64,000 bases of DNA from a virus: positions 48,887 through 112,886 of IMG/VR virus record IMGVR_UViG_3300031469_000005. One strand, written 5' to 3'. The notes under the pieces were generated by a model. The model had not been told where the DNA came from and did no database searches. It saw only the letters and a list, made by a program, of their open reading frames with translations. The position numbers and the translations under genes were made by a program. This document shows positions 17,399 through 64,000 of this stretch, piece after piece. Each line of letters opens with the position of its first letter. The stretch's first letter is position 1.

Positions 17399-18175
17399 AT
17401 GGCAAGACGAGCAAGTTGTTCCGCGGTAATTAGTTTCGGTTTGGTTTCGATTCCGGTGAAGTTCTACATCGCAGCAAAGACTGAGAACGTGTCTTTCTGC
17501 CTGTTGTCACCGAAGGGTGATCGAGTCGAGCAACTCTATCGTGAAAAGAGCACGGGCAAGGAGGTAGCTCGCAACGAGATGCTCCGTGGTTACGAGGTCG
17601 GAAAGAACCAGATCGTTCAATTCACAAGCGATGAGATCAAAGCTCTAGAGGAGAAGAACAACGGTGAGATCGAGATCAAGGAGTTCGTTCCTGCATCTTC
17701 GGTGGATCTGCTTCACGTTGAAACCAGCCACCATCTTTCTCCCGGCAAGGGTGGTGATAAGGCATACACTCTCCTCGCTAAGGCCCTTCTGAAGACTGAG
17801 CAGTACGCGGTGGCACAGTACACAGCTCGTGGCAAGCAACACGTTGTGGTCATTCGTCCTTATCAGGACGGTCTCGTCATTCATCAAATGTTCCTGGCGA
17901 ACGAGGTTCGGGAATTCGAGAGCGATGTCGCCAAGGTTACCGTGAAGGACACTGAGGTCGACATGGCATGCATGTTGATCGCTTCCTTGAAGAAGGACAA
18001 GTACGATGTTTCTTCCTACGTTGACACCTACAAGGAACGCGTTGAGAAGGCCGTCGAGGCGAAGTTGGCCGGTACGAAGGCACCCGAGGAACCCGAAGCA
18101 AAGCCCGAGCCAATCAATGACCTCTTCGCGGCTCTTCAGGCGAGTCTCGCAGCTCAAGCCAAGAAGACTGCGTGA
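17399..18175 (+). CDS. ku: Ku protein (non-homologous end joining)
   Basis: ISFGLVSIPVKFY, RGYEV, IEIKEFVP, KAYTLL, DTYKERV, DLFAALQASL. Confidence 0.95.
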   Translation: MARRASCSAVISFGLVSIPVKFYIAAKTENVSFCLLSPKGDRVEQLYREKSTGKEVARNEMLRGYEVGKNQIVQFTSDEIKALEEKNNGEIEIKEFVPASSVDLLHVETSHHLSPGKGGDKAYTLLAKALLKTEQYAVAQYTARGKQHVVVIRPYQDGLVIHQMFLANEVREFESDVAKVTVKDTEVDMACMLIASLKKDKYDVSSYVDTYKERVEKAVEAKLAGTKAPEEPEAKPEPINDLFAALQASLAAQAKKTA

Positions 18176-25315: not shown

Positions 25316-25557
25316 AGTACGGTCAACTTCGTCCGGGTGATATGTTTGTTTACGAAACATCCGGACCAGGTCGACAACTACGATCAGTTCTCGTGATTGG
25401 TAATCACGATGATGATCATCACGAAGTTTTGATGGTGAGATCACCCGGTTGCGTATGTAGCGTCATTCGATGGATACTATCGTTCGATAGATTGATCACG
25501 TCAGACGTTAAGGTGATCCACCTTACCAAAGGTCACGAACGAATGGGTCAGTCATGA
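25312..25557 (+). CDS. small LRPGD family protein
   Basis: YGQLRPGDMFV..LVIGN. Confidence 0.6.
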   Translation: MKYGQLRPGDMFVYETSGPGRQLRSVLVIGNHDDDHHEVLMVRSPGCVCSVIRWILSFDRLITSDVKVIHLTKGHERMGQS

Positions 25558-25729
25558 CGTACGGATCGTTCTCGCTCGATGGCGGCACGGGGCCGTAATC
25601 ATTTTCCCAGGTCGTTGATGCGTCCTCGAGATGAGCTGATAGATCCTCGTCATCAGACGTGTCAAGAGCGCCGGTCCCGATGATCATTGCTTCAATGAAT
25701 TTTCGTAAGAGTGCGTGATCGTTCTTCAC
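25523..25729 (-). CDS. small acidic protein with LLRKFI leader
   Basis: ORF track, TAGTTA motif 5 nt upstream. Confidence 0.6.
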   Translation of the reverse strand: MKNDHALLRKFIEAMIIGTGALDTSDDEDLSAHLEDASTTWENDYGPVPPSSENDPYVMTDPFVRDLW

Positions 25730-25769
25730 GAATCTAACTATTCGTTGCTAGACACTTGCTTTCATCACA

Positions 25770-26965: not shown

Positions 26966-27193
26966 TTAGACGAATGTGCAATATTTTGAATGAATGAATG
27001 TGAGCTCGTTAGAGAACAACGGGCCCTGAATAGTCCTGCCGAAAAAGACGTAAAAAACATCGAGTGGCGAATTGCTTGTATTCTTTGAAACGTACGAGTT
27101 TGCTGGAACGACGCTGATGACAACACCCACGTTCTTTGTTTTTTTCAGTTGTACTAAATCCCCAATTGAATTCATATGGGATATGTAGCTCAT
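26966..27193 (-). CDS. small IGD SH3/KOW-like protein
   Basis: SIGDLVQL..GVVISV. Confidence 0.5.
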   Translation of the reverse strand: MSYISHMNSIGDLVQLKKTKNVGVVISVVPANSYVSKNTSNSPLDVFYVFFGRTIQGPLFSNELTFIHSKYCTFV

Positions 27194-32764: not shown

Positions 32765-33187
32765 TCAAACGATTTTGAACAATTCTTGATTGTAATCAGC
32801 GAATGGAGAAATTTGAGGATTTAACAACATTTTTCTTGTAACCCATTGAATTTTACCTTCTTCATCTGAGTGAATCGTTCCCGTGATTGAACCTACAAAA
32901 GTAGTTGTTTCATACCCCTGTTTATCAACTCTTGAAAAGATTTTTTGAAGATTTGTTGCAACAAGACCCGTTTCTTCAAACAATTCTCTTTTTGCTGCTT
33001 GAGAAGCAGTTTCTGGAAAATCCACTTTTCCGCCCGGGAGTCCGATCTTAGACGCGTCATCCTTGCGAGAAACCGAAAGGACCAAACCTTTTTCGTTCTG
33101 GATGAAGACGATCGCAGCCTTCTTCTGCTGAACTACCTCTGATAGCAACGAAACGTACGTTCTGATGAATTCTTTTAGAGATGACAT
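32765..33187 (-). CDS. NUDIX hydrolase with N-terminal LKEFIR..LLSE leader
   Basis: Nudix box PGGKVDFPETASQAAKRELFEETGL. Confidence 0.9.
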   Translation of the reverse strand: MSSLKEFIRTYVSLLSEVVQQKKAAIVFIQNEKGLVLSVSRKDDASKIGLPGGKVDFPETASQAAKRELFEETGLVATNLQKIFSRVDKQGYETTTFVGSITGTIHSDEEGKIQWVTRKMLLNPQISPFADYNQELFKIV

Positions 33188-35572: not shown

Positions 35573-35926
35573 TCAAAATACCTTGATCGATTTTACGTTG
35601 CCAATCACCTCATCAACGTTGATGTGCAATTTCCGTGTGAATTTAGCATTCCACTCTTTTTCGAATCTAACCGCGAGATCCCACGCATGTAGTAAAAGGT
35701 CGTACGATCTATCAACGGGCACGACCATTAGGTCGACGTCTGATGAATTGTCACCATTTCTATCAGGCATTCGTCGAGAATCTTGATTCGCCCACGATCC
35801 GACAACAAACGCTCCTGAGAACACATCACGATGATCTTTGAACCAGTCTCGAATGAACGAAATCTCATCATCGATCGATGTTGATTCCGTAAGAACTGAT
35901 TTCACGAATTCTCGAAGCAGTTTCAT
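35573..35926 (-). CDS. minimal nucleotidyltransferase with LLREFV..LTES leader
   Basis: VVGSWA...SDVDLMV. Confidence 0.75.
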   Translation of the reverse strand: MKLLREFVKSVLTESTSIDDEISFIRDWFKDHRDVFSGAFVVGSWANQDSRRMPDRNGDNSSDVDLMVVPVDRSYDLLLHAWDLAVRFEKEWNAKFTRKLHINVDEVIGNVKSIKVF

Positions 35927-36906
35927 ATTGCCTTGATCTTTTGCATCGCTTGGTGATAATCATCGATCATGACGTGTTCGCGAGGAACACCGGATTCGAA
36001 CGCAGACTTGATCTGATCATTCAACTTCTTCACGTAGAAGTTCTTCATCGCCGCCTTGACAGCTTCCACGACCTTCGATTCTACCTGAGATCTTTCGGGA
36101 TCCTTGAGTTTCTTCACTGCGTTCAATTGTGGAATGTTCTTACCGACAACCTTCATCAGATCGTCGACGGTCTGCGCTTTTCCGATCACGTTCACAGCAT
36201 CGAACATCTTTTCAAGCGAGCTTCTCACGATCTTTCGAGCGTCATCCTTCATGCTTTGAATCTTTGGATTGTCCTTAATCATGTCTGCGACACGAGAATC
36301 AATTTCAGAAGATTCTCCGATGATGCGAGATTCATGTTTCTTAACACTTGAGAACAATGCAGATAGTTGAGAAAAATCGAAATCGTTCTTTTTTGAATTC
36401 TTTTTCTTCAATTTTTCAACGTAATTGTTGAGTTTTCCGCCCGTTAACGTGTTCAACAGACCAACGACGACCTTTGGTGATTCCTTTGCGATCTTTGATG
36501 TGATGAGGCTCGTAGGATCATATGCGAACGCTCCGGCAAGTATATCGTTGTCCTTAACGGCTTTCCAAGTACGGTCATAAACGTCACGATATTTGTCCTT
36601 TAGCTTAGAAAGTTGTTCCTTTTCGTCTTTGAAAATTTTGTCATAATCAGAAGACATCCCGGGAAGAATTGTCGTTCCTATGGCTTCGAATGCGACCTTT
36701 CCGACGGTCTGAAGCCGGTTCGAAAGTTTTTCAACACCGTGTTTCGCGGTCGAAAATACGTCAGCGAATGGCTGAAGAAACACATTATAAAGTTTCTTGG
36801 GATCTCCGCCAGTGAAATCGATACCCATGTCAGATGATGAATCAAATCCACCATAGTCCTCTCGAAGAACACGACGCACATACTCTCTCAATAAAACATC
36901 GTTCAC
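35923..36906 (-). CDS. probable virion (internal head) protein with LLREYVR..LRED leader
   Basis: GTG 36906 is 5 nt after TACTTA. Confidence 0.65.
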   Translation of the reverse strand: MNDVLLREYVRRVLREDYGGFDSSSDMGIDFTGGDPKKLYNVFLQPFADVFSTAKHGVEKLSNRLQTVGKVAFEAIGTTILPGMSSDYDKIFKDEKEQLSKLKDKYRDVYDRTWKAVKDNDILAGAFAYDPTSLITSKIAKESPKVVVGLLNTLTGGKLNNYVEKLKKKNSKKNDFDFSQLSALFSSVKKHESRIIGESSEIDSRVADMIKDNPKIQSMKDDARKIVRSSLEKMFDAVNVIGKAQTVDDLMKVVGKNIPQLNAVKKLKDPERSQVESKVVEAVKAAMKNFYVKKLNDQIKSAFESGVPREHVMIDDYHQAMQKIKAI

Positions 36907-36921
36907 GTCAATAAGTATAAT

Positions 36922-43778: not shown

Positions 43779-43901
43779 ATGCCTTTCCATTTCTGCATGG
43801 ATGAACTTTTGATGATCATGGCTGCGATCCCGTTCGTAGGGGCGGGATTTCGTAAGCTACACGATTGGTGGCACGTGAAATTCAAGCACAAGAAGCATTG
43901 A
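43779..43901 (+). CDS. 40-aa membrane peptide with basic C-terminus
   Basis: MPFHFCMDELLMIMAAIPFVGAGFRKLHDWWHVKFKHKKH. Confidence 0.45.
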   Translation: MPFHFCMDELLMIMAAIPFVGAGFRKLHDWWHVKFKHKKH

Positions 43902-45024
43902 TTCGATCAAGCAGGATTTTGATGCCGAATTCTTTGAATTCAATGTCAGTGATTCGAATAAGTTTTAACTTGTGTTGATCAAAGAATTCGTCTTGTTTTC
44001 GATCAAAGAACCATTTATTGTAGATTGATCTGTCACGAGGATTTTTGAATTCTTTGATCAAGTCTAAAGATCGATCTAAACCGTGCCAATAAACACCGTC
44101 AAGTTGAACATATGTGTCGATCGATTTGATGTAAAAATCAATAGGCCATGATTGATTGATAACACATTGACGTTCAACATCATTTTCTCCGAAATATTCT
44201 ACCAAAACAAGAAACATTGATTCTTCGATCTTTGAAATCTTGTAAGAATCATTTCGCTTCATTGTTTGGTGGCGTTTATTCCACGCTTGTTTTGATTTAG
44301 CTTTTAGTTTTACGCTCTCAACATTTAAGTTGGATTGAAATCCAATCAGTTTTAGATTTGTTTCTTTCTTTTTTAGCTTGACACTTTCATCCTTTGATAC
44401 GTTGTCAACCCCTCGAGACAACCGCACAGAATCCCGAGACTTTTTACGAATTTCCGCACTTTGTTGGGGAAATTTCACACCAAAATTTCGCATGCAAGTT
44501 TCTTGAGATTTTAATTTACTTGATTCGAGTTGTGATGGATTCGTAACGCCTTTACTGAGCCAAACTTGTTTACATTTTTCTTGAATTTCTTTTTTACAAA
44601 ACCCGTAAGTTCCAATTCTTCGATCTAAAATTCGTTGAGGGTGTGATTTACCACAACAAACGTAACGAACGATTTCATTGAATTCCCCATGTTGAGAATC
44701 AATGAACATTGCTATTTTTAAGAATTTTGTAAACGTTGATTCAATAATTCGAACTGTCGAACCGTGTTTTTCTTGAATACGTTTTTTGACTTCGTCAAGA
44801 TCGATTGAAATTTTTTGTTTAGCATTTCTTCGTCCCCGTTGAGGATGACCATGACCATTAAAAATGTTTCCGGGTGATGCGATCCATTCGCCAAATTCAA
44901 CATCAACGAATGAACATTTCGTATTTGCGTCAACAAATGTAGAATCAACTAATTTTAGTTGTTCACCGTGCTTTTCTAAAATACGTTTTTTAGCTTCTTC
45001 GAGAATGACTTTTTTCCATGTCAT
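43882..45024 (-). CDS. Vsr/DUF559-like PD-(D/E)xK free-standing endonuclease
   Basis: IDFY, VQLDGVYWH, DRKQD, LIRITD, N-terminal repeated K.RI.EKHG and (F/Y)GV..P.Q units. Confidence 0.8.
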   Translation of the reverse strand: MTWKKVILEEAKKRILEKHGEQLKLVDSTFVDANTKCSFVDVEFGEWIASPGNIFNGHGHPQRGRRNAKQKISIDLDEVKKRIQEKHGSTVRIIESTFTKFLKIAMFIDSQHGEFNEIVRYVCCGKSHPQRILDRRIGTYGFCKKEIQEKCKQVWLSKGVTNPSQLESSKLKSQETCMRNFGVKFPQQSAEIRKKSRDSVRLSRGVDNVSKDESVKLKKKETNLKLIGFQSNLNVESVKLKAKSKQAWNKRHQTMKRNDSYKISKIEESMFLVLVEYFGENDVERQCVINQSWPIDFYIKSIDTYVQLDGVYWHGLDRSLDLIKEFKNPRDRSIYNKWFFDRKQDEFFDQHKLKLIRITDIEFKEFGIKILLDRINASCA

Positions 45025-45050
45025 TCTCGAATTGTACAAAATTATTCGTA

Positions 45051-45323
45051 CTATAGGTTATCTGGATCGAGTTCGAGGTGAGCGTTGTGTGCTTCTTCAG
45101 GTTCGTAACTATGGTCGTACGAACAGATCCCGCACTGCTCGTAATCACAACCTTCAGCTTCATGACCTTCTGAATCAAGACCACACATTGGACAAGTATC
45201 CGTCAATTCGTCATCAACCCCTAACCATGGACCACTTTCAACGATGATAGGTTTTGCGAATCGTTGAGCTTCCTCGTTTATGAGATTTTGAAGCTCTTTC
45301 ATGCTAAAAGATTTATGGTTCAT
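45051..45323 (-). CDS. small putative head protein with MKELQNLINEE leader and Zn-like CxxC
   Basis: leader motif, CPMC...CGIC. Confidence 0.6.
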   Translation of the reverse strand: MNHKSFSMKELQNLINEEAQRFAKPIIVESGPWLGVDDELTDTCPMCGLDSEGHEAEGCDYEQCGICSYDHSYEPEEAHNAHLELDPDNL

Positions 45324-45621
45324 TGTAGTCGTCCATGATTGAATCAATAACGTTGTCAAGTTCATCGAGTACCTTCATTAAACGTTGAGAATTTTTCAAT
45401 CGTTCCCCCTTTGGGGGCCCCCAAGAGTTCGCGTTGAGTGCAATATCCATATCACTCATTCCCATCGTATCATCGAATGCGATTTGGAAGTTCATGATAT
45501 CGTTTCTTAGCGCGTCAAGTGCTTGGATCGTATCAGGTGACCAAACACCGACACGACCAGGCATGTGCGCAGCCTCTTCTTTGATCAATTGCTTGAGTTC
45601 TTTGATCGTGATCTTCATCAT
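45313..45621 (-). CDS. putative head protein with MKITIKELKQLIKEE leader
   Basis: leader motif. Confidence 0.65.
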   Translation of the reverse strand: MMKITIKELKQLIKEEAAHMPGRVGVWSPDTIQALDALRNDIMNFQIAFDDTMGMSDMDIALNANSWGPPKGERLKNSQRLMKVLDELDNVIDSIMDDYNEP

Positions 45622-46805
45622 TCTTCCTTCGGTGATTCGTTGAAAGCCCTAAGGTAATCGCTTTCCTTGTAGGCGTTTCCGTAGTACGATGAGGGTTCAA
45701 CCTCGAGCTCGCCCGTCTCGTTGTAACGAGGATCGACGATCATGACGTCGCCGTGAACGAACGGGAACCTGCTGTTCAGGAACGAGTCTCCGTAGAATTC
45801 GACCGGATCGCAATCATTTCCGTTCAAATCGACCAACGGGTTCGTCACGTGGCTTCCTTCGTGATCGAATCCCCATTCACCCGGTGGATGGAATCCCGTG
45901 TTCGTTTCTTGTTTCGACGTCGGTTCGACAGAAACTTGTCGTTCGGTATAGGATAACATTTCATCCAACACGTCAAAGACCTTCGTGTTGTTACGTCGTG
46001 CAAACGATTCGAGATTCTCGTAGATCGTTTCGAGCTCAGTCTTCTTATGAGATTCATTCAGGTGCATTTCACTGACCTTCGAAAAGTCACGTGAAAGTAT
46101 GACCGTTACGCGGCCTTTTGAGGTGATCACGGTGTAGTAAGGATTCGATTCTAAGTTTCCGTTTCCGTCCTCACACTTGCTGTCCTCGTAATGGACTTCC
46201 TTGACCTTGCCGTACTTCTTTTGAATTTGCGACTTGATCTCGTTGCTGAGGTCGTACTTGCTTTCGTTCAACTTTCTTTCAAGCAAACCTTTTGCTGCAC
46301 GATCAACGAACGTATGAACGTCTCCCAAGGTTAGACCGTACTTCTTTCCTAGAACGGACGACACGATTCTGTCTTCGGGGGTTCCACCGTTTACGAGATC
46401 CGCGACCTTCTTCATGACATCGTTCGTGATTTGCTTTGATTCACTTTGAACGCTGTGAACAACTGAAACATCGCTCTGAACGGGATTCGCCTTACGTTGA
46501 CGTGCCCACTCAGCGAACGCGAGTTCGATGATCCTCCAATCGGGATGGTTCTTTGACTTGAGGCTGTGACGAAACGCCTTGAGGTTACCCGAGAACTTTT
46601 GATCAGCACGATCGCCCGCATTGAGCGATTTGATCATCGTCTTCAAAAGTGAAAGCATCAGCTTTTCATCGCCACTTGCAGCCTTGATGTCGCGATGGAA
46701 GTTTGAGCCTTGTTCGAGAGGAACAAGCACCGCAGCTTCGTTCAACATCGAACGAACTTGTTGGCGTATCGTTTTCTCTGCTAATTCATGAACGTTGATC
46801 GTCAT
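45618..46805 (-). CDS. putative head polyprotein with repeated LNE(S/A) sites
   Basis: IRQQVRSMLNEA, VQSES, KLNES, HLNES. Confidence 0.65.
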   Translation of the reverse strand: MTINVHELAEKTIRQQVRSMLNEAAVLVPLEQGSNFHRDIKAASGDEKLMLSLLKTMIKSLNAGDRADQKFSGNLKAFRHSLKSKNHPDWRIIELAFAEWARQRKANPVQSDVSVVHSVQSESKQITNDVMKKVADLVNGGTPEDRIVSSVLGKKYGLTLGDVHTFVDRAAKGLLERKLNESKYDLSNEIKSQIQKKYGKVKEVHYEDSKCEDGNGNLESNPYYTVITSKGRVTVILSRDFSKVSEMHLNESHKKTELETIYENLESFARRNNTKVFDVLDEMLSYTERQVSVEPTSKQETNTGFHPPGEWGFDHEGSHVTNPLVDLNGNDCDPVEFYGDSFLNSRFPFVHGDVMIVDPRYNETGELEVEPSSYYGNAYKESDYLRAFNESPKEE

Positions 46806-47074
46806 TAGATCCTAACTAGAGTTGTTGCCGGTTGTTTATTCGCGGGATCTCTGAGACCCAGCGTTACTTCAGTACCTCGTGAATCCATGAACGTGACAGT
46901 TCCATCATTGTTTTTTCGAATGCTTTTCACGACAGTGTCGCGTCCGCCAGACGTAGAGACAAGAACGTCTCCCACTTGAATTTCTGAAACCTTTTTGCTG
47001 GAAGAATTCGATTCTCGTAGATGTTGAATTTCTTCCTTGATGACCTGTTTGAGTTGTCTTAGAGAGATTTTCAT
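46805..47074 (-). CDS. putative head protein with MKISLRQLKQVIKEE..LRES leader and SH3-like IQVGD domain
   Basis: leader motif. Confidence 0.65.
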   Translation of the reverse strand: MKISLRQLKQVIKEEIQHLRESNSSSKKVSEIQVGDVLVSTSGGRDTVVKSIRKNNDGTVTFMDSRGTEVTLGLRDPANKQPATTLVRI

Positions 47075-47078
47075 TTTC

Positions 47079-47669
47079 TTACCCGTGCTTTCCAACAGTT
47101 GCAATCACGTCATCAACTGCAGATTCCGCCACAGACAATGATTGTAGGACATCTTTCCATTCAGGATGCTTCTTTTTAATCGCTGTCGTAGCATCAGAGA
47201 AAAAGTTCGCTGTATCCTGCAATGTCTTACGAATTTGCTGTGCGAGTTGATCGAATCCCGCACGTTCGTGGAGAAGCGAGAGATCAAGTTGCTTCACCGT
47301 TGATTCACCGAAGCGGTCTTTACCACCCATGTTCGAATCATCCCATTCACGTTCATCGCTTCCGTACATACCTTCACTTTGATCGTAAGATCCGTCGCAC
47401 TCGGGACATCCCAAACATTCCACCCCCAGGCATTCACCCGCGGCGGAGGTTGGTCCGGCGTCGGGTTCAAGATCATCATTGTAAAGATCGAACAATGGAT
47501 CTTCGTGCTCATCAAGAACATCATCAGATTCGTGCATTCCGTGTTCAATGTCGCTGTCGACACCACCCGAATGCATTCCAGCTTCGATATCCCATTCAGT
47601 TTCCTTCAATGGAACTCGATCCATTTCTTCCTTGACGAGCTTCTTCAATTGATTGATGTTAATCTTCAT
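47079..47669 (-). CDS. putative head protein with MKININQLKKLVKEE leader
   Basis: leader, TACTTA upstream (47692-47697), AAGGA SD. Confidence 0.7.
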   Translation of the reverse strand: MKININQLKKLVKEEMDRVPLKETEWDIEAGMHSGGVDSDIEHGMHESDDVLDEHEDPLFDLYNDDLEPDAGPTSAAGECLGVECLGCPECDGSYDQSEGMYGSDEREWDDSNMGGKDRFGESTVKQLDLSLLHERAGFDQLAQQIRKTLQDTANFFSDATTAIKKKHPEWKDVLQSLSVAESAVDDVIATVGKHG

Positions 47670-47690: not shown

Positions 47691-48494
47691 TTAAGTATTC
47701 TTGATCCAAGCATTGATATCGTCGTGTTCATACAACCAGATGTGATTTCTATGAATTTTATTTTTTTGATCACGAGTACGTCTGCTCACTTGTAATCCGG
47801 AAAATCCATCCTCTGAAACGCCTCCAGTAAAATCGTATCGTTTTACGAAATTTCCGTCAAGAGAATACGAACAAACAGGTTTTCGAATTGCCTTTAATTG
47901 TGCAATCTTGCATTTTTGAGGAATTCCCTGGCCAAGTAATTTTTTTGTTTGACTGACCTTTTTTCCCATCTCGGGGTCGCGTTTTTTCCCACGAAAAGGT
48001 GATGGCTTACCAAAATTAGGATTTCTCTCTCCCGATCGTGATTTACTCATTTGAACGATTGATTCTAGTTTGTGTTTTCTTCCAACCATTGAAAATCGAA
48101 ATTTATCCAAATTTTGAGGGTTTTCGATCTGGTATTTTTTAACTGATTCGCTGATTTGTTTTCTCACGGACGACGGAATTGTTTGATTGTTTCCACCCAA
48201 CATGATGTTATATCCCCAATTTTCATCCGTTGAATTTGCGTCACGTATTAATGAAATTTCAGCTTCATTTAAAATTCGTAAAAGTTCGTGTTTGTCATTT
48301 GATCTTACTGTATACAAAACGGAGAAATCAAAATTTTCAATTCCGTGCTTTTGCATTGAGTGACACAAATGACGATTATGTCCTCCTAGCCTTTTTATGT
48401 GTTCATGCCAACGTTGTTCGACAGAACGAGATGTTTGTCCGATGTAAACCTTGTCATTGACAAGATTTTTGATTTGATAAACATGACCTAACAT
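47691..48494 (-). CDS. GIY-YIG homing endonuclease with NUMOD3
   Basis: VYQIKN..NDKVYIGQT, RW.EH, E..LI, GYNI..GG, NPNFGK. Confidence 0.92.
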   Translation of the reverse strand: MLGHVYQIKNLVNDKVYIGQTSRSVEQRWHEHIKRLGGHNRHLCHSMQKHGIENFDFSVLYTVRSNDKHELLRILNEAEISLIRDANSTDENWGYNIMLGGNNQTIPSSVRKQISESVKKYQIENPQNLDKFRFSMVGRKHKLESIVQMSKSRSGERNPNFGKPSPFRGKKRDPEMGKKVSQTKKLLGQGIPQKCKIAQLKAIRKPVCSYSLDGNFVKRYDFTGGVSEDGFSGLQVSRRTRDQKNKIHRNHIWLYEHDDINAWIKNT

Positions 48495-51400
48495 TACTCA
48501 GCCGTGACGTTGTTTGTCACGACGAAATCCAGGGAGATGAATTCCATCGTGCGAGTGGGTTGAACGAATATCATACCCCTGATTACACCATTCAAAATAT
48601 CTTGTTGCGTCGTCGTGCTTGAATCGATCACGACCTTGAATGATTCAAGACCAGCAAGGGCTTGAACACGTTGCAATTTTGGGGTGACGGCAGATGAGAA
48701 CCTTGCCAATGTGACCTGGCGGTTCGGTTCGAACACCATCGTCCGAGCGATCGCTCTCACATCTCGACGTAGATCGATCAGCAACCTACGAACGTTAACC
48801 CGATCAAGGGCGGAAGCAGCAACCTGGAGAGTTTTCTGACCCCAGACCACAACACCACCCTTTGCATTCGTACCGGCACTTGCGTTGCCCGGGAATGCAA
48901 CGAGAGGATTAACGTCAACATCGTAAAGGGAATCCATGTTCTCCTTTGAAAGACCCACTCGAGCCTCTTGGACGGTTGGAAGGGCGCCTCGTGTGAACCC
49001 TGCCGCTGCGAACCATGGATGACCGACCGAGTCGTTGAGAGCGAACGCTCCAAGAACCGCGACGGAAGGAGGACAAACGACGTTCGTCTTCGTGGTTGGA
49101 TCTTGCATGACAACGTCCGGGAAGTACGCCGCTGCAAAGCTGGAATCCATCGAACGATTTGCGAATCGATCCACGGTCTTGCTGACGTCGGGCAGCTGAG
49201 AATCAGCTGTGACAATGTCGGAGTTCGTATCAAGCTGCTCGATGTCCATGATGTACATGGCATCTCGACGATCATCGCTTTCCATCGCTTCGACGGCGGA
49301 GTTAGAGATGATGGGGTGGCGAATTCCGGGAATTGCGAGAAGTTGAATGTCAACCTCAGTAGCATTCTTGATCAGATCAAGAGCCTTGAGGTACGTACGA
49401 ACGTTCGGTCCGTTCGACGTTCCACGGTTCGAGTTGTTCATGTCAGCGGTCACCGCAGTGTTATTTAATTCAGCCTCATCGCGATCGAATAGATTGGTAC
49501 CATTGAATCCACCCTGAATGAAGGTGGTGAATTTCAAAAAGCTTCGATTCGATTGATTGAAGTCTTCAAGTGCAAGTCTTCGAGTCTTTGTTGAATCACT
49601 CGTGACAATGTTTCCATCACGAACGTAGACAGCATCGTCCCATTCTTGAGCATCAGCAAGAAGGTTTGATCCGGTTACTACCTTGATGTTGTCAAGCGAG
49701 AAGGCACCGAGGTTGAAGCGATCAGCATCGAGGATACCGTTCGCAGTCGTATCAGATGTGCCTTCGTTTCCACCAGCAACAACGTTCTGAGTCGATGTCA
49801 TGAAATCGGGATAGTACTTCGCATGTGAAGCAAGAGCCTTATTCACGAGAGTTGAACCGTTCGGAGTTGTGGGTGAGGTTACATGCTCGAATTGAACGCC
49901 CCAGTAAAGGAGGGGATTCACTGCACGTTTCTGTCCGGTTCCCGTTGAAATGTTCTGACGGAATGGAACGGGTGGCGTGACAACGTTCTTCATCGGCGTT
50001 ACGCTGATCAATTGCGTTGAAACAACCGGTGAAAGTGGTGCCGAACCCGAGGTCACAAGGTGAGCATGTCCTCTGAAACCAAGAGGAAGTGCGGTTGCAT
50101 CAACTGTTTGATTGTCAACGTCGCTCGACATTTCAACTCGAATCAGGTTAGAATTCGCTGGGAATTGTCCCTGAATCGCAATCTTTTGCGATGCTTCCGA
50201 TTTATCAAAGTCAAAGTAAACGTTCGCATCGCCGATGATCTTTGCAATGTAACGATCCGAAGAAGGATTAAGATCGAGTCCGCGCCAGGCTTCTAAAGGC
50301 TTCAGATCCGTATCACGATCGAACCAATCACGAACAACCAGATCGAACGTACCGTAACGATTCGCAGGATCACTTGAAGGGGAGATGTTTTCGATCGACA
50401 ACTTGTAGCTCGTTGAAATTCCCGAACCATCATCCAAGGCATGAACCTTGAATAGGTTCGTTCGATTTCCACCGAAACGTTGCGAGGTGAACCACGGCGA
50501 AGCAGCATGACGGAAACGATCCTCAAAGTTCTCGAAGTTGGGAACCGTCGAAGAACCAACGTTACGAGCCAAAGAACCCGTCAGCAGGAATGCTGCAGAT
50601 TCAGTTCCCGACTTTTGATTCGTACTAGCACCCGAACCGCTCAACGTGCTGATGATACCTGAACCCGTGACAGTCGCCGTGGAAGGGTGAACGTCCCAGT
50701 ATGAATAAAGGTAATGACCAGCTTGTTGCAGGCTGTACGGGTCCTTGTTCAAAACGTTACCAAAGTAGTTCGGTGACGTCAGGTCGAATGAAGCGGTGAT
50801 CACGTTCGGATACGCAACGTTAGTTCCCTTGTGACCGTTCAACAAGAGGACGAAATCTTGCTTAGCAACACCGTTCGCAAGAAGCACAACCGAACCTTGC
50901 GCTGTACCTTGACCGCTCGTGTCACTTGCAATCGCAGTCGAGGTTGGAGCGACGCTCGTGCCTTCAAACGAAGACGATAGACGAAGAACCACGCCAGAAG
51001 CCGCCATCAACACTCCACGAAGAATCGGCAGCGCGGTGTTACCTGATTGCAAAGACGCCGAACTGAAAACACCTGAACCAGCGGATTCCGACATCAAGCA
51101 ACCTAGCATGTACGTACGTCCAGGAATGCCATTTGCATTCGCGTAGGGATTCGTAGCCAAGATACCGTCGGCATTGTTATCAGGTTGCTGTTCACCAACA
51201 ACGAACCCCGCGGAGGTTACTGAACCCGCAGTGTTGCCAGTTAGGTTACGCCTCTTACCATCACCAACGCCGAGAACCTTCACGAAGGTAGCAGCACCAG
51301 CGTTTCTGAGCCATTCAGTCACCGCCAGCGGACCGAATTTCTTGCCGTCGGTGTTACCGAACTTTGCGTAGAAATCATTGATTAGACCGACAGTTACGGG

Positions 51401-51538
51401 AACGAATGCGGGGCCTCGCGTCGATGTTCCAATGACACCAGCAGGAACACCCGTGGGGGTCGCATTGACCGCACCCGAAAGGTCGATCTCTCTAGCGGTA
51501 ACGCCCGCACTTCCAAATTTAACGTTAGCGTTTGACAA
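48494..51538 (-). CDS. contractile tail sheath protein (paralog 2)
   Basis: SAGV..REID, GT..RGPAFVP, PWFAAAGFTRG, NPL, WGQKTL, LDRVNVRRLL, FEPN, EFI. Confidence 0.93.
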   Translation of the reverse strand: MSNANVKFGSAGVTAREIDLSGAVNATPTGVPAGVIGTSTRGPAFVPVTVGLINDFYAKFGNTDGKKFGPLAVTEWLRNAGAATFVKVLGVGDGKRRNLTGNTAGSVTSAGFVVGEQQPDNNADGILATNPYANANGIPGRTYMLGCLMSESAGSGVFSSASLQSGNTALPILRGVLMAASGVVLRLSSSFEGTSVAPTSTAIASDTSGQGTAQGSVVLLANGVAKQDFVLLLNGHKGTNVAYPNVITASFDLTSPNYFGNVLNKDPYSLQQAGHYLYSYWDVHPSTATVTGSGIISTLSGSGASTNQKSGTESAAFLLTGSLARNVGSSTVPNFENFEDRFRHAASPWFTSQRFGGNRTNLFKVHALDDGSGISTSYKLSIENISPSSDPANRYGTFDLVVRDWFDRDTDLKPLEAWRGLDLNPSSDRYIAKIIGDANVYFDFDKSEASQKIAIQGQFPANSNLIRVEMSSDVDNQTVDATALPLGFRGHAHLVTSGSAPLSPVVSTQLISVTPMKNVVTPPVPFRQNISTGTGQKRAVNPLLYWGVQFEHVTSPTTPNGSTLVNKALASHAKYYPDFMTSTQNVVAGGNEGTSDTTANGILDADRFNLGAFSLDNIKVVTGSNLLADAQEWDDAVYVRDGNIVTSDSTKTRRLALEDFNQSNRSFLKFTTFIQGGFNGTNLFDRDEAELNNTAVTADMNNSNRGTSNGPNVRTYLKALDLIKNATEVDIQLLAIPGIRHPIISNSAVEAMESDDRRDAMYIMDIEQLDTNSDIVTADSQLPDVSKTVDRFANRSMDSSFAAAYFPDVVMQDPTTKTNVVCPPSVAVLGAFALNDSVGHPWFAAAGFTRGALPTVQEARVGLSKENMDSLYDVDVNPLVAFPGNASAGTNAKGGVVVWGQKTLQVAASALDRVNVRRLLIDLRRDVRAIARTMVFEPNRQVTLARFSSAVTPKLQRVQALAGLESFKVVIDSSTTTQQDILNGVIRGMIFVQPTRTMEFISLDFVVTNNVTAE

Positions 51539-51648
51539 TTTATATCTTCTCCGTGGGAAAAATTACCTAACTTAAGTATGAATTAGGTATGGCGACTTCA
51601 GGGGAAAATATCGTGAATGATTCTGATATCGTTCATAGATAATCACAT

Positions 51649-52419
51649 ATGATTCACGTTATTCGTTCGTACGTTAGAATTCTTCTTGAAAATTGGGAGA
51701 ATGAGGATGAATTGCCTGATTACAAGAAAGTAACTGGTAAGACTTCATGGGCAAATCTACATAATGCCGCTCATAGAATGAACGACGAGGTCGATCGAAT
51801 GATGATGTACGGCGGAGGCGTTTCAGAAGTTGATGCTGAGACTGCAAGAAAATTGCTAAACATGCATGGTGGTAACAGTCATCAACAAAAGCATGGAGAT
51901 GAAAAGATCATTGAACACGTTGACGCTGAAGACGGTGTTGGTAAAGCGCTTAAAAGATACATTGAATGGGAAACGAACAATTACCTTAAATGGAAAGCCA
52001 TGTTTGATAAGCGGCGCGAATTTCTCGATAATAAACTTGAAACGATGCGAAAGAAATGGGAAAACCCTCCGAACGAAAGTTATCGTGAATACGAATTGTT
52101 AGACATTGGATTCAATAATTTTTCTGAGGATCGAGAAGGTACGTTTCAGGACATTGTAGATTTTTACGAAAATCAATTTAATGAAGAAAATGAACCTCCG
52201 ACCGTTCATCGTAAAACGACAACGAACGACAACGAACGTAGGATCCTATCGTACACGACGGATTCACGAGGAGCTTGGACTGGAAACGGTGGAAGGATTC
52301 GTCCGAACAAAAGCATCACAATAGATGAATTACTCGCGAACGGTTATAAAATCCTTGGTGGTGTGGGCCGAATGATGGGGGCGCCAGGCGAAAGCGAAAT
52401 CACGTTTATTAAAATGTGA
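51649..52419 (+). CDS. hypothetical protein with IRSYVRILLE leader
   Basis: ORF track, TAGATA motif upstream. Confidence 0.65.
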   Translation: MIHVIRSYVRILLENWENEDELPDYKKVTGKTSWANLHNAAHRMNDEVDRMMMYGGGVSEVDAETARKLLNMHGGNSHQQKHGDEKIIEHVDAEDGVGKALKRYIEWETNNYLKWKAMFDKRREFLDNKLETMRKKWENPPNESYREYELLDIGFNNFSEDREGTFQDIVDFYENQFNEENEPPTVHRKTTTNDNERRILSYTTDSRGAWTGNGGRIRPNKSITIDELLANGYKILGGVGRMMGAPGESEITFIKM

Positions 52420-52793: not shown

Positions 52794-55700
52794 TTAGACG
52801 AACTCGACACCGCTTTGAGTGACGATGAATGAGATCTCCACGAATTCTGCGACTCGAGTTGGAACCACAACGATTCGACCATTCATTCGATTCAGGTCAA
52901 GATCCGCTTTCGTATTATTACTCTCGTTACAAACGACCTGGAATCGTTCAATTCCTTGTTGAGCTTGAATGAGACCGAGTTGTAGAGTAACATCACCGAC
53001 AAACTTATTTCGAATGTTCGGAGTATTCTGTTCGAATGTTAGACCGTTAGCGATGTTGACAACGACTCGTTTTACCTCTAGAAGGGTTCTACGAACGTTG
53101 ACTCTGTCAAGACTGCTTTTCGCGATCTGCAGTGTTTTTTGACCGTAAATGACAAATCCTTGTCGAGGAAATGTTGCGATTGGATTAATTCTTGATTCAT
53201 AAAGCCTATCTCGTTCAGGTGATGATAACCTGACCTCAGCGTTTTTAACAAAATCCAATGCTGCGCGATTAAATCCTGCGGGCGCGAACCATGGATAAGA
53301 GATCCTGTCATTAAACCCTATCGCTCCGAGAGCGACGACCGAGCTCGGCACCTTCACTCGACGCTTGTTGAATTCGTCATCGATGAAGCAATCCGAATAG
53401 TAACAACCAGCGTAGTTGTTATCGATTGCACGTGAATCAAGGGCGGAGGCCGTCTTGTCAACATCCGGTGTGACCGTACCATCCTCAAACAAACGAACAG
53501 CGTTCTCATCGTACGACGGGATGTCCATGATGTAGAATGCGAACCCGTAATTCTTTGCACGTTGTGCGGCGAGATCGGTCAAGAATGGTTCACGAATTCC
53601 CGGCATTACGAGGAGGTTCGTGTTCATCGTTTGCTTGTCGGTCATGATCTTCAGTGCGGTATTGAAAGATACCACGCCGTTGTTCTGTTGACCGGTTCCA
53701 GCTGCGTTGACAAGCAATCCCGGCGAAACGTAGGATGAATTAGCACCACCACCCGTATCGAACGAAGTTGACTTATCGTTCAGCTTAGTAGCATCACGAT
53801 CGAGGAAGTTTGTTCCATCGTATCCACCTTGCATGAAGGTCACGAACTTGGAGAATCCAACGAATTTATTGAAGTTAGCAGGAGAATCCTTCGCAAGGAT
53901 CGTAGCAAGGGTGACTCGACGACCCAATACACCATCATCGATTCGGTAATCGGTTGAATCCGAGATACCGTTTCGTAGGTAAGCAACCTCCTTCATGTGA
54001 TCGTTGACGGATGCCGTCAACTGCGTGATGGAGGAGTTAGAGAATGCAACCCTTGAAAGTGAGAACTTGTTGTTGTTGAAAGTGTCGGCACCCGAGCCAG
54101 TGACAAGAACATCCAACTTCTCAATTCCCAGGAACTTTGTGTACGATGCTAGGAGCTCGTTCTTCTCAGAAACGATGTTCGCGTTCAGAGGATTCGTGTT
54201 CCTTTCGAACTTAACTCCCCAATACAATTGCTGGCTCGCAATCTCAGTCGGACCAGGTTGACCCGGCCAGAGAGGATTCGAAATTGTTCCCTTGGTTACC
54301 TTATACCTAAACGGTACGGGAGGAACGATCGAACCCGAGAGTACCTCTGCGACAGCTCCCTGCAACACTCCACCGATACGAGCCCCCGTTGACGTCGTGT
54401 CAGTCAATGTGTTGTTCGTCTTCAATGCATGCAGACCACGGAAACCAAAGGGAAGTGAATTCTGAGGAATCGTACCGTCATCGACGGCGGAATTCATCAC
54501 AATCCTGATTCGTTTGGAGACGTTATTGTATTTACCAAAAGTCACGATACGACGTTCGGTATCAACCGTGGCGTCAAAGTTGTAGGTGACATGGCGATCG
54601 CCGATCAACTTAGCAACGTAACTCTCATCGCTTGGATTCAAAGTGCAATTCGGAAACCGCTCAAGTACTTGTGGATTCACGTCGGTGTCGTTGTAATCAC
54701 GAACCTCGACAGTGAATGAACCGAATGGATTCGACTCATCAACCGATGCCTTGATGTTGCTGATCGCAATCTTGTAAAGTTGATTAGCGAATTCGCCATC
54801 GTCAAGCGCTTGGAAACTGAAAAGATCGTACTCAGCAGAACCGAAAGGTTGGGAGATGAACGACGTGGTCGAAGGCGTCTGGTAACGAGAATCGAATGCA
54901 CCGAACGCTTGACGCATTGTCGTGGTCGGTTCACCCGAATTCGCGGATGTTGCAGTCGTTCCTGATAGGACACCAACCGTCGTGGGGAATGCAATCTCGT
55001 CATCAACCGCAAAATCAGCAAGCAAGTAATGTTGATCCTGAACGAATCGATCTGGATCGCGGTTCATCACCTTGGCGAAGTAATCAACGTCGGAAGGATC
55101 GAACGAAGCAGTGAAGATCTTCACGCCCGAGGCTCCATCAACGTTTGAGAACGTATTTCCAAGCGTTGACGAGATGACGATCTTGATCTTGTCATTCACA
55201 ACGAGAGCGCTGTCATTCGGTCCCGCAGCAGTGAATGCACCGACCGCTGATTCATTACCATCAAGAACCATCAACCGTGAACCAGAAGCCATCATGACCA
55301 TACCACGAACAAGCGATACCGCTGATCCCTGGAATGAATCGTTATCTGTGAACATTGGCATTCCGAATGCTTCGTTCGCCTGCAACGTGTGACGTGCAAC
55401 TAAGAACTGTACAGCACCGTTATGACGACCGCGAGAATCGTGTGCAGCAACCGTACCTTCAATCTTGACACCAGCCGCGGCCGTTCGGCCTGTCAACGCA
55501 GTGGTAGAAATTTGTGCGTCAGTCTGATTAGCACCAGCCCCAAGAACACGAAGGTACGTCAGCGACGTTCGATGCTTGAGGAACTCATTGACCGCGTACG
55601 GACCCATCTTCTTTGGATCAAGATCCCCAAAGACTGCACGGAATTCGTCCATGCTTCCGATCGTCACGGGAACGAAGGCGGGACCGCGTTGAGCGGTACC

Positions 55701-55802
55701 AATGACGCCAGCGGGAGTGCCCACCGGATTCTGTGGGACGACCGTTGATCTGTCGATCTCACGATCGTATGCGTTTGGACTGCGAAAGGTTTCGTTTGAC
55801 AT
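52794..55802 (-). CDS. contractile tail sheath protein (paralog 1)
   Basis: SPNAYDREID, RGPAFVP, PWFAPAGFNR, INPI, YGQKTL, LDRVNVRR, FEQN. Confidence 0.93.
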   Translation of the reverse strand: MSNETFRSPNAYDREIDRSTVVPQNPVGTPAGVIGTAQRGPAFVPVTIGSMDEFRAVFGDLDPKKMGPYAVNEFLKHRTSLTYLRVLGAGANQTDAQISTTALTGRTAAAGVKIEGTVAAHDSRGRHNGAVQFLVARHTLQANEAFGMPMFTDNDSFQGSAVSLVRGMVMMASGSRLMVLDGNESAVGAFTAAGPNDSALVVNDKIKIVISSTLGNTFSNVDGASGVKIFTASFDPSDVDYFAKVMNRDPDRFVQDQHYLLADFAVDDEIAFPTTVGVLSGTTATSANSGEPTTTMRQAFGAFDSRYQTPSTTSFISQPFGSAEYDLFSFQALDDGEFANQLYKIAISNIKASVDESNPFGSFTVEVRDYNDTDVNPQVLERFPNCTLNPSDESYVAKLIGDRHVTYNFDATVDTERRIVTFGKYNNVSKRIRIVMNSAVDDGTIPQNSLPFGFRGLHALKTNNTLTDTTSTGARIGGVLQGAVAEVLSGSIVPPVPFRYKVTKGTISNPLWPGQPGPTEIASQQLYWGVKFERNTNPLNANIVSEKNELLASYTKFLGIEKLDVLVTGSGADTFNNNKFSLSRVAFSNSSITQLTASVNDHMKEVAYLRNGISDSTDYRIDDGVLGRRVTLATILAKDSPANFNKFVGFSKFVTFMQGGYDGTNFLDRDATKLNDKSTSFDTGGGANSSYVSPGLLVNAAGTGQQNNGVVSFNTALKIMTDKQTMNTNLLVMPGIREPFLTDLAAQRAKNYGFAFYIMDIPSYDENAVRLFEDGTVTPDVDKTASALDSRAIDNNYAGCYYSDCFIDDEFNKRRVKVPSSVVALGAIGFNDRISYPWFAPAGFNRAALDFVKNAEVRLSSPERDRLYESRINPIATFPRQGFVIYGQKTLQIAKSSLDRVNVRRTLLEVKRVVVNIANGLTFEQNTPNIRNKFVGDVTLQLGLIQAQQGIERFQVVCNESNNTKADLDLNRMNGRIVVVPTRVAEFVEISFIVTQSGVEFV

Positions 55803-57186: not shown

Positions 57187-57199
57187 ATAGTTAAGTATG
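57186..57199. promoter_or_regulatory. overlapping divergent late-type motifs (TAGTTA on +, TACTTA on -)
   Basis: near-palindrome CATAGTTAAGTATG between divergent structural genes. Confidence 0.6.
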
Positions 57200-61772: not shown

Positions 61773-62984
61773 TCACCCCACGGTGATGGCCTTTCCCAAT
61801 GGTACGACCATGTACTTAAGTTGTTTGTTCAGATTCTCTGCAATTGAGGCTTCACGTTCAACAATTTTATCGTACATTAACTCACCCAAGTATTCAAGAA
61901 GTTGATCAACCAGTTTTGACTGGTCTTCCCGACCTTGTTGAACTAGTTCAGCACCGTTCAAACGAACTTCGGCATTTGGAACGGGAATTGTATCGAATTT
62001 GGAACGAATTAGCCCCAAGAGTTCTTTACACAAAGCAAGAACGTATTGGCGGATCCATTGTCTGCCTGGCTGGGTGATTGTAGTGAAAGGAAGGACTCCG
62101 AATGGAATGTTGCTGGGTCCCGAGATACCGTAGATCGAATCGTCTTGATACGCGATACCGTTGAGAGCTCCATTACCAGATGCGGCTAGAGGATCGACGT
62201 ACGGAAAGACACGAACGAACAATTTTTGTCCAGGCATGAACGACGTTGGGATGGGATAGATTCGAATCTTGCTACCCGTTATTCGGTACGAGTAATTCGA
62301 TCTTCGTACTCGAAACGATGTTTCGAGCATTTGTCGTCTAAGGACATCTTCAAACACGGGATAGACGTAGAAAATTGAACTATTAATGTAACTTTCATAG
62401 TTGAAGTTCGTCGCGAGGAAATTCGTGATGTTACTAGAGTTCAACAGGTACCCCTGAGCCGCCAATGGTTCAAAGTGCATGATCTCGAGAACTGTCAACT
62501 TCCCCTTCGAGCCGGAAGGAATTGCATCAACAACAAGCGACCCGCTCATCGTCCCACTAAAGATTCGCAGCTCGGTGTAAAGATCGTAATCTTGTCTTCC
62601 CGCCTCTAGGTCAAAGTAACCCTCAATTGCGTTGAACGCACCACCGATGCCCGTGAACGAGGCGTACGGTTCAGCCATGCGATTCAGGAATTCAAACGTT
62701 CTGTGGGGGTAGAGGTTCGTGAGATCCAAAGTGCCAGTTGGAAGCCCCAGCACACCAACGAGCTCGTTCTTTGTACGTAGTTCGTGAATGTATCGAGCAT
62801 ACGTCAAACATGCCTGTTCGAACATTGCCCAAATTTGCTTCGAGGTCAGCTCGACGCTGAGAACATCATCGCCCAGGGCCCTCTTGACGAACAGAACCAT
62901 GTTGTCAGCTTCTGAGCGAAAAGATGCCTCGTTATCAAAAAATGAAAAAGGAGTTGGATGTATCGTCTGAGCGAAAGTTGTCAT
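61773..62984 (-). CDS. neck/head-tail adaptor protein (T4 gp13-like)
   Basis: LG..VL.VELT, YDL, WIRQY.LAL.KE.LG.IRSKF..P....LNG..L. Confidence 0.75.
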   Translation of the reverse strand: MTTFAQTIHPTPFSFFDNEASFRSEADNMVLFVKRALGDDVLSVELTSKQIWAMFEQACLTYARYIHELRTKNELVGVLGLPTGTLDLTNLYPHRTFEFLNRMAEPYASFTGIGGAFNAIEGYFDLEAGRQDYDLYTELRIFSGTMSGSLVVDAIPSGSKGKLTVLEIMHFEPLAAQGYLLNSSNITNFLATNFNYESYINSSIFYVYPVFEDVLRRQMLETSFRVRRSNYSYRITGSKIRIYPIPTSFMPGQKLFVRVFPYVDPLAASGNGALNGIAYQDDSIYGISGPSNIPFGVLPFTTITQPGRQWIRQYVLALCKELLGLIRSKFDTIPVPNAEVRLNGAELVQQGREDQSKLVDQLLEYLGELMYDKIVEREASIAENLNKQLKYMVVPLGKAITVG

Positions 62985-64000
62985 TACTTCTTTTCCCACT
63001 CCTGCGTGTGTCCGTCAGACGGTCGCGTGACCTTCAACTTATCACCGTCAAGCGCGACGTTCGCCTTCTCACCCGGCTTGAACTTTGAGTTATTCTTTCC
63101 GAATATATTGCTGTCGAATCCCGTGTGAACGTCGAACCCATATTTCTTACCGTAAACTTTACGAGATTTTGCGAATGCTGGATCAACTGGAGACGTTTTT
63201 TGAGCAGTTTCACCTGAATACGCTCCTACGCCCGGACTCTTTGGTTTTCGAGGCCCCATTCCGTCAGCATACGACGTATCGTACTTCTTTTGTGGGGGTT
63301 CCGGTCGCTTCATTTGCTCTTGGTAACCCTTGGCGAGCTTTTCGGAGATCTTTTTGTTAATGAATTCTTGTGCCTTTGCCTTTGACATGAATGGATAATC
63401 CGCATGTTGTCCTTGGGTTCCAATTCGTCCCCAATTCACACTAACATCGAACGCATCAGCTTCGATGTTCTTCGCAGGTTCCATCTTCACGCTCCAGAAC
63501 TTCGATGAATTACCTCCAATGAAGGTGAAACGACGTTCGGTGTACATGGGACTCTCGTAATCTTTCTTTGCTTGTGCCCATTCACGAGCCTCAGCCTCAG
63601 CTCTTGCATATGATCTGGCCGCTTTAGCTTCTTTTTCAGCTGCACGTCGTTTATCATCAGCGGCCGCCGCTGATTTATTACGTTCACGTTCACGTTTCGC
63701 TGCATCTCTGCGTGCTTGATCCTCCGCGGCGGTGGGATTACGTGCGGCATGTTGTTGCGTATGTTTGGACTTAAAGAAATCTTCCCAAGGATTTGCGTTG
63801 TGGGTTGAACTGCGTGTATTTGATGAGGTAGTAGATCCCAATTCCCTGTCGAGGTTCGCTCTTTTAGTGGGGTCACTGAGAATCGCTTTCGCCGCATTGA
63901 CACGTACCATATCGGTCGTCGCAGTGGGAGACTTGTTGACATCGGGATGCATTTCACGAGCCTTCTTTCTGTAGGCGATTTTAATCTCGTCTTCAGAGGC
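62984..64000 (-). CDS. J-domain + WGR domain protein (5' end outside window)
   Basis: ASEDEIKIAYRKKAREMHPD..VNAAKAILSDP.KR, then SSKFW..VNWGRIGTQGQ..EKLAKGY. Confidence 0.88.
   Translation of the reverse strand, partial: ASEDEIKIAYRKKAREMHPDVNKSPTATTDMVRVNAAKAILSDPTKRANLDRELGSTTSSNTRSSTHNANPWEDFFKSKHTQQHAARNPTAAEDQARRDAAKRERERNKSAAAADDKRRAAEKEAKAARSYARAEAEAREWAQAKKDYESPMYTERRFTFIGGNSSKFWSVKMEPAKNIEADAFDVSVNWGRIGTQGQHADYPFMSKAKAQEFINKKISEKLAKGYQEQMKRPEPPQKKYDTSYADGMGPRKPKSPGVGAYSGETAQKTSPVDPAFAKSRKVYGKKYGFDVHTGFDSNIFGKNNSKFKPGEKANVALDGDKLKVTRPSDGHTQEWEKK

Follow-up and report, generated by a model that had tools for sequence, protein, structure and literature searches.

The window analysed here, a stretch of 64,000 nucleotides (nt) at the end of a viral contig of 112,886 bp (IMG/VR record IMGVR_UViG_3300031469_000005; hereafter the fragment, or G000), contains five consecutive genes (47669-45051) whose products begin with the same short amphipathic helix. 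We believe that this leader is probably the counterpart, specific to its lineage, of the capsid-targeting sequence (CTS) of phage T4. As a helix of ~15 residues on proteins predicted to be made late, it would attach the protein that bears it to the scaffolding core while the prohead is assembled and be cut off by a gp21-type prohead protease after the conserved Glu of an I-[RKN]-E motif; the mature cargo would then stay inside the head, and at least part of it would be delivered with the DNA into the next host. The five genes would thus belong to a fast-turnover cargo array that lies downstream of the tail sheath gene across the lineage. Core binding, cleavage, retention in the virion and injection are steps that we infer; co-injection goes further than the others, and some carriers may instead serve in the core, to be degraded and expelled afterwards. 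Positions are those of the window, except where they are called genome positions, which follow the numbering of the contig.

All five genes are on the minus strand and are separated by gaps of -1 to 11 nt. Leader gene 1 (47079..47669) encodes a protein of 196 amino acids (aa) with an isoelectric point (pI) of 4.3 and a Cys-rich centre, the leader being residues 1-15 (MKININQLKKLVKEE; 13.2 bits with the iterated hidden Markov model, HMM, described below). Gene 2 (46805..47074; 89 aa, pI 10.0) starts with MKISLRQLKQVIKEE (17.7 bits), and gene 4 (45313..45618; 101 aa, pI 4.5) with MKITIKELKQLIKEE followed by Ala (18.6 bits). Gene 3 (45618..46805; 395 aa) presents a longer variant, MTINVHELAEKTIRQQVRSMLNE, with a predicted cut before Ala and an N-terminus that contains EKTIRQQVRSMLNEA (7.2 bits), while gene 5 (45051..45302; 83 aa, pI 4.1) has MKELQNLINEE and then Ala (13.2 bits), a leader four residues shorter, in front of a four-Cys zinc-ribbon-like body. 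BLASTP likeness among the five proteins was confined to residues 1-19 (47-58% identity), and pairwise comparison of the bodies gave no match (E above 0.2). None of the five genes belonged to a significant Pfam or PHROG family or could be given a function, and tblastn with the five bodies found none of them in the loci fetched from relatives. The initial annotation had described five consecutive genes sharing one N-terminal helix, and the translations, BLASTP and the HMM all bear this out. Its further statement that the bodies are unrelated holds in that they have no mutual similarity, but not all are orphans. The gene 3 protein, alone in the array, has homologues (five, metagenomic and distant), all of which retain the invariant Glu10, Arg14 and Arg18 of its leader and the L-x-E-[AG] site at residues 21-24; a search of the ESM Atlas returned no usable neighbour for it. 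The gene 2 body matched weakly (10.4 bits) a small-barrel family with an LxPGD motif that is expanded in this phage, which suggests that one family member may have acquired the head-loading tag. This family comprises ~18-25 copies, many of them small open reading frames (ORFs), between 1672 and 59914.

The HMM was built from five seeds, run against the entire 112.9-kb fragment translated in all six frames, and then taken through three rounds of iteration, with reversed sequences as decoys and the best decoy score as the cut-off. With the five seeds, only the five array genes and a gene at genome position 13175 (MKITLKQLKDIIKE) stood out in the fragment, at 14.7-23.7 bits, the next match having 4.6. 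After iteration, seven matches in the fragment exceeded the best decoy, all within 10 residues of the start codon, and the same was true of 22 matches, all within 8 residues of the start codon, in the relative G001 (309 kb, 91% complete). Two further relatives, G002 and G005, will also be mentioned, and 80 IMG/VR loci encode a sheath 45-69% identical to that of the fragment. When the survey covered the fragment, G001 and the other 79 sheath loci with a threshold of at least 9 bits, it yielded 116 matches, 110 of them within 10 residues of the start codon and 73 directly after Met; the exceptions were mainly second copies in tandem double leaders. Besides the array, about a dozen genes elsewhere in the fragment start with the tag.

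Among the 93 unique leaders, the consensus after iteration was M-[KR]-[IL]-[TS]-x-x-[QE]-L-[RK]-x-[IL]-I-[RKN]-E-[EA]-[ILV], with near-invariant columns at L7 (91/93), I11 (84/93) and E13 (77/93). The first [LIVM]-x-E ended at residue 14 in 52 of the 93 and at residues 10-21 in 91. Their unique carriers measured 22-289 aa, and the 89 bodies that were clustered by BLAST fell into 61 clusters. We give almost no credence to the possibility that the leader reflects chance, low complexity or a repeated DNA cassette such as a promoter, a ribosome site or a recombination box. The sequence is indeed short, with many K, E, I and L residues, and T4-type phages do carry mobile regulatory cassettes; however, the matches scored far above reversed decoys, nearly all were N-terminal, and the leader is kept across relatives whose sheaths are merely 45-69% identical. 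Moreover, the 30 nt upstream of the copies are unlike one another and third codon positions vary, which points to selection on the peptide and, together with the margin over decoys, excludes a DNA cassette or chance. Double leaders are found on small proteins, either back to back (MKLSQLKEIIKEE-VQLHRLRKLIREA) or ~40 residues apart, as at L093:16225-16452 in G001 and downstream of the sheath gene in L012, L072 and L027-L029; the leader thus duplicates as a module.

In most of the 80 sheath loci, leader genes follow the sheath gene directly and on the same strand. Thirty-four of the 44 relatives with enough flanking sequence have between one and seven of them within 4 kb downstream of the sheath gene, and in G001 they lie between the sheath and tube genes. 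Microcystis phage Mel-JY01, the nearest cultured relative, had no leader match in its 50-kb structural region, and its tube gene comes directly after the sheath gene. The placement of the array directly between sheath and tube genes in most relatives would also suit an uncleaved docking or oligomerisation helix, a coiled coil of two heptads, with a partner other than the capsid: the tail lumen, sheath-tube assembly, a chaperonin or J-protein, or a host factor. The hydrophobic residues are at heptad-like spacing, and genes resembling those of a chaperonin and a J-domain protein were recognized by eye in the fragment. We nevertheless find this explanation quite improbable. A plain oligomerisation helix needs neither to start at residue 2 nor to keep a conserved Glu, the lumen of phage tails is occupied by the tape-measure protein, and the packing signals known from contractile injection systems are longer and disordered; in addition, leader genes are conserved in the head module of three relatives, as detailed below.

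The initial annotation had also placed a late-type motif before the sheath genes and before each leader-bearing transcription unit. This motif is real in the form ATA[ACGT]TTA and precedes the gene of sheath paralogue 1, but it is absent before that of paralogue 2 and before four array genes individually. The box is under-represented about 4-fold in the fragment (23 copies against ~102 expected), and 17 of the 23 copies lie 3-7 nt before an ORF start. Copies in the window are located at 47692-47698, 51573-51579, 36912-36918, 25735-25741 and 57192-57198, among other places. The first of these, ATACTTA, is 22 nt upstream of leader gene 1, and the same sequence is found 34 nt before the start of sheath paralogue 1. 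In total, boxes in the fragment precede the sheath-1 gene, a gp15-like gene, the first array gene and eight other leader-type genes, the sheath-2 gene having none; in G001 they precede both sheath genes, the tube gene, a gp13-like gene and the scaffold candidate. The four array genes without a box of their own are explained by their forming one operon behind the first gene, and leader genes without a box are mostly in operons behind boxed structural genes. The predicted association of leader and box was confirmed in G001, where a box was present before 9 of 22 leader genes but before 18 of the remaining 451 (odds ratio 16.7, p = 5e-7). We conclude that leader genes appear to share a late-type promoter box with structural genes, and late expression is what this predicts in silico. 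Both in the fragment and throughout G001, nearly every copy of the box is just upstream of an ORF. Many dispersed genes start 3-7 nt after it, structural genes 15-34 nt after it. At 3-7 nt, mRNAs made from a box that acts as a -10-like promoter would be leaderless or nearly so, and several such genes start with GTG. The box could be read by the truncated sigma factor of the phage (14640-15422).

The tag is not restricted to the array. The variants listed earlier for scattered genes at 36906, 35926, 33187, 51649 and 25729 are all present with the translations quoted, and several belong to a second form of leader (class 2, pattern LLREYVRxVL). The gene at 35923..36906 (minus strand) carries VNDVLLREYVRRVLRE on a 327-aa basic protein (17.2 bits) and has ATACTTA 5 nt upstream. 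The gene at 35573..35926 (minus strand) has MKLLREFVKSVLTE followed by Ser (117 aa, 18.6 bits) and a minimal nucleotidyltransferase-like body with a weak match to Pol-beta nucleotidyltransferases (E 0.022). The gene at 51649..52419 (plus strand, between the sheath genes) has MIHVIRSYVRILLE followed by Asn (256 aa, 13.9 bits). At 25523..25729 (minus strand), a looser leader, ..LLRKFIE and then Ala, was recognized by eye, below the HMM thresholds, on an acidic 68-aa protein with ATAGTTA 5 nt upstream. A class-2 HMM built from four seeds (LLREYVRRVLRE and similar) without use of G001 gave four N-terminal matches above the best decoy in that genome, as well as one in a spurious frame.

Grafting of the leader onto an enzyme is clearest for the Nudix hydrolase at 32765..33187 (minus strand; 140 aa, leader MSSLKEFIRTYVSLLSE). 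The Pfam NUDIX domain begins at residue 22, after the leader, and the AlphaFold2 (AF2) model, with a predicted local distance difference test score (pLDDT) of 94, depicts residues 4-19 as a helix set apart from the Nudix fold that comes after it. At least 58 of 104 homologues begin directly at the core, with the GLPGG motif at residues 28-36, and others have an N-terminal extension of 15-70 residues that starts with the leader. Orthologous cores bear a class-1 leader in P0006, P0011 and P0020 and a class-2 leader in P0005, P0018 and P0030, so that Nudix orthologues occur leaderless or with either form. Similarly, an Fe/Mn superoxide dismutase (SOD) at genome position 35053, outside the window, has an extension of ~28 residues of the leader kind with the Pfam SOD domain after it. 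The largest candidate cargo by far is found in G001 (L090:10345-13401), a 1019-aa leucine-rich-repeat-variant protein (PF01816, E 3e-10) with the leader MKVTLGTLRESILE and a box 6 nt upstream. The class-2 pattern LLREYVRxVLxE, amphipathic and present on enzymes, is similar to the encapsulation peptides of bacterial microcompartments (BMC), such as the N-terminal peptides of Pdu and Eut enzymes, and the leader could address its carriers to a microcompartment-like or other non-capsid shell. This is very improbable, for the shell domain PF00936 was not found in G000, G001 or G002 in searches in which E. coli and Synechococcus controls were positive; the absence of a BMC shell gene disfavours such a peptide.

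Also outside the window, the gene at genome 20201-21136 encodes a candidate ADP-ribosyltransferase (ART) of the R-S-E type, with the leader MNSEQQLRTFIKE and a box 5 nt upstream. Among 1.84 billion representatives it had a single remote relative (P0112). This is a Mu-F-like head protein of 1571 aa that contains four ART-type repeats; Pfam recognizes one of them as ART and ADPrib_exo_Tox. The motifs [FY]-R-G, S-x-[ST] and Q-x-E are in register between the protein and an ART repeat of P0112 (E 6e-6 in the pairwise comparison and 8.5e-7 library-wide), and its ten best named neighbours in the ESM Atlas were all PF03496. Pfam HMMs were negative for the protein itself, a PDB sequence search returned nothing relevant and a single-sequence AF2 model failed (pLDDT 33). 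On account of the Pfam result and the failed model, we consider the assignment as an ADP-ribosyltransferase probable, not proven.

If the leader works as proposed, a prohead protease of the T4 type is to be expected, and it was found in the relatives. Peptidase_S77, the family of T4 gp21, scored above the cut-off in G001, G002 and G005. In G001 the protease falls in phrog_207 and the capsid protein in phrog_138, and a portal is encoded as well. The capsid protein shares 30% identity with T4 gp23, and in their alignment LLE53 and LKE62 are found next to the maturation site of T4, LTE65. By capsid and sheath similarity, the lineage is a branch of the T4 superfamily and not a relative of phiKZ. 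The head module of G001 consists of genes for terminase, a 103-aa leader protein, portal, a 284-aa protein, protease, a 134-aa protein, peptide deformylase, a 157-aa leader protein, an 83-aa acidic leader protein, a 187-aa protein, a 667-aa scaffold-like protein and the capsid protein. As in G001, leader genes of ~157 and ~85 aa come after the protease in G005, and one of ~100 aa lies between terminase and portal in G002, whose protease-to-scaffold stretch is poorly called; the gene between terminase and portal in G005 (196 aa) is leader-like by eye only. The computational predictions of the capsid-targeting reading put forward in the initial annotation (N-terminal position, an [LIV]-x-E end, unrelated bodies, tagged enzymes with closest relatives that lack the tag, machinery of the gp21/gp23 type in relatives, leader genes within the head module and a box shared with structural genes) were borne out.

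The same head module brings up the question of what becomes of the carriers. The leader might indeed target the prohead while most carriers are expendable core or scaffold-accessory proteins, comparable to T4 gp67 and gp68, that are degraded and expelled and not injected. As with gp67, a small size (median ~106 aa), acidity and helical structure are common among the carriers; the most conserved carrier group (12 members) has additional L-L-E sites right after the leader; and the conserved leader genes adjoin those of protease and scaffold. We consider this rather unlikely for most of the set, because folded enzymes that carry the tag (Nudix hydrolase, Fe/Mn SOD, the probable R-S-E ADP-ribosyltransferase and the nucleotidyltransferase-like protein) make little sense as disposable scaffold, and the turnover of the bodies (61 clusters from 89, 0-7 copies per array) looks more like that of arms-race cargo than of assembly parts. 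The folded enzymes among the carriers suggest that some members of the set, at least, are delivered. A more ambitious version, possible but somewhat short of probable in our judgement, is that one portable tag in two forms loads some 25 or more proteins per genome into the capsid as a kit that is injected with the DNA. Such a kit would include the ADP-ribosyltransferase, the Nudix hydrolase, the superoxide dismutase, the nucleotidyltransferase-like protein and dozens of fast-evolving orphans, maybe with anti-defence functions.

The T4 CTS is a sequence of ten residues that directs proteins to the core of the prohead before being cleaved off (PMC9026906, PMC3012670), gp21 cutting after L/I-x-E (PMC9026906). 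It is present on IPI, IPII and IPIII, and Alt, gp24 and gp22 have short propeptides; gp21 removes them all (Mullaney and Black 1996, reviewed in PMC9026906, PMC3012670). Alt is a head-packaged, gp21-processed ADP-ribosyltransferase (PMC9026906). Read from NC_000866, the CTS of IPII and IPIII is MKTYQEFIAE, followed by Ala. Like it, the leader described here is a short tag at the extreme N-terminus of unrelated proteins that starts with M-K, is amphipathic and ends in [LIV]-x-E. Further points in common with T4 are the gp21-type protease and gp23-type capsid (in relatives), cargo genes that are of fast turnover and predicted to be late, and a probable ADP-ribosyltransferase cargo that recalls Alt. 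In contrast to T4, the leader has 15 residues rather than ten, there are ~22-27 carriers per genome and not about five, and two interchangeable leader forms exist. Linkers can reach ~50 residues, and now and then two leaders stand in tandem. The Nudix, SOD, nucleotidyltransferase-like and 1019-aa repeat-protein cargo and a dedicated array between sheath and tube likewise set apart the present system.

Several observations weigh against equating the leader with a capsid-targeting sequence. On the N-termini of T4 IPI, IPII, IPIII, gp22, gp23, gp24, gp67 and gp68, the leader HMMs scored at most 2.2 bits, as compared with 6-8 for decoys, so that the relation to the T4 tag is by analogy only. Capsid and scaffold N-termini gave no significant score either. 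The Glu at the consensus position is missing in 16 of the 93 leaders, which depend on a later [LIV]-x-E, and the residue after the predicted cut (P1') is mostly Glu, in contrast to the usual Ala of T4. The array sits between sheath and tube genes, outside the head module. The fragment, which is 33% complete according to CheckV, contained no protease or capsid gene, the Peptidase_S77 search being negative, and its machinery is therefore deduced from relatives with sheaths 45-69% identical. Finally, the lineage has no cultured member. No DNA-level relatives of the fragment were found among cultured phages, and we found no paper on the lineage or its leader. A 174.7-kb contig carries the same proteins as the fragment. 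The idea that the leader was copied from a capsid N-terminus, or is a homologue of the T4 CTS, had been suggested by a likeness seen by eye (..TLDQL..IRE in the G001 and G002 capsid proteins; T4 gp23 and gp24) and was discarded, as the HMM does not support it.

Other phages offer partial parallels. The phiKZ-like giant phages (phiKZ, 201phi2-1, SPN3US) have long propeptides on head and ejection proteins and proteases of the gp175 or gp245 type (PMC5694885, PMC9026906). As proposed here, a diverged gp21 homologue processes many of their head proteins after Glu, prohead targeting is the presumed role of the propeptides, and paralogues may share identical N-termini (SPN3US gp53 and gp54). However, these propeptides differ from the leader in their length, mostly 80-160 residues, and in their motif, [SAG]-x-E; nor do dozens of unrelated proteins have one short leader in common. 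Fusions of Mu-F-like head protein and ART, such as P0112, would also put an ADP-ribosyltransferase into the capsid for delivery, but in the genome-20201 protein there is no fusion to a structural head protein, just the leader of 15 residues.

The surroundings of the array and of the head module present additional features. Upstream, the array is anchored by the gene of sheath paralogue 1 (48494..51538, minus strand, 1014 aa), from which it is separated by a GIY-YIG homing endonuclease gene (47691..48494, minus strand), and it is closed by a homing-endonuclease-like gene (43882..45039, minus strand) with matches to DUF7487 and HNH PHROGs. The two sheath paralogues (~1000 aa; 48494-51538 and 52794-55802) are on the same strand, separated by the divergently transcribed leader-type gene at 51649-52419, and both kinds also exist in G001; gp15-like and gp13-like neck genes lie beyond paralogue 2. 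A GroEL-like chaperonin (27193-28812), a J-domain protein beside the neck genes (62984-63952) and a Ku-like protein (17399-18175) were recognized by eye from their N-terminal sequences. The peptide deformylase gene is within the head module at L095:10163-10666 in G001 (phrog_2890, E 1e-42) and at L110:8171-8647 in G005, where position and N-terminal sequence are the sole grounds for the assignment. With the prohead protease gene on one side and leader-bearing core genes on the other, this is an odd site for an N-terminal processing enzyme. Some packaging genes are much lengthened, namely the G001 portal (L095:12577-17088, 1503 aa), the G002 terminase (L109:1000-3813, 937 aa) and the G005 portal (L110:3076-6234, 1052 aa), and HNH-endonuclease matches inside the G001 portal suggest inteins in packaging genes.

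The T4 principle has been known since the 1990s. That the CTS lets T4-like phages package varied proteins has been noted before (PMC9026906, PMC3012670); what the present analysis adds is the scale, the types of cargo, the exchangeable leader forms and the conserved sheath-proximal array, in a lineage without a cultured member. If the tag works as in T4, its sequence alone would single out the proteins present, and probably destined for injection, in the head of an uncultured jumbo phage, and enzymes such as the Nudix hydrolase, the SOD and the ADP-ribosyltransferase would have been recruited to the virion by grafting of a 15-residue peptide. The leader would also be a natural and compact candidate signal for packaging foreign proteins into large capsids. 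If true, the proposal narrows the search for early effectors and anti-defence proteins to a small set of candidates, many of no known family. Should the carriers in fact constitute an injected kit, the injected proteome of uncultured jumbo phages of the T4 superfamily would be readable directly from sequence, and the sheath-proximal array would represent a catalogue of candidate proteins for host takeover and anti-defence in the first minute of infection.

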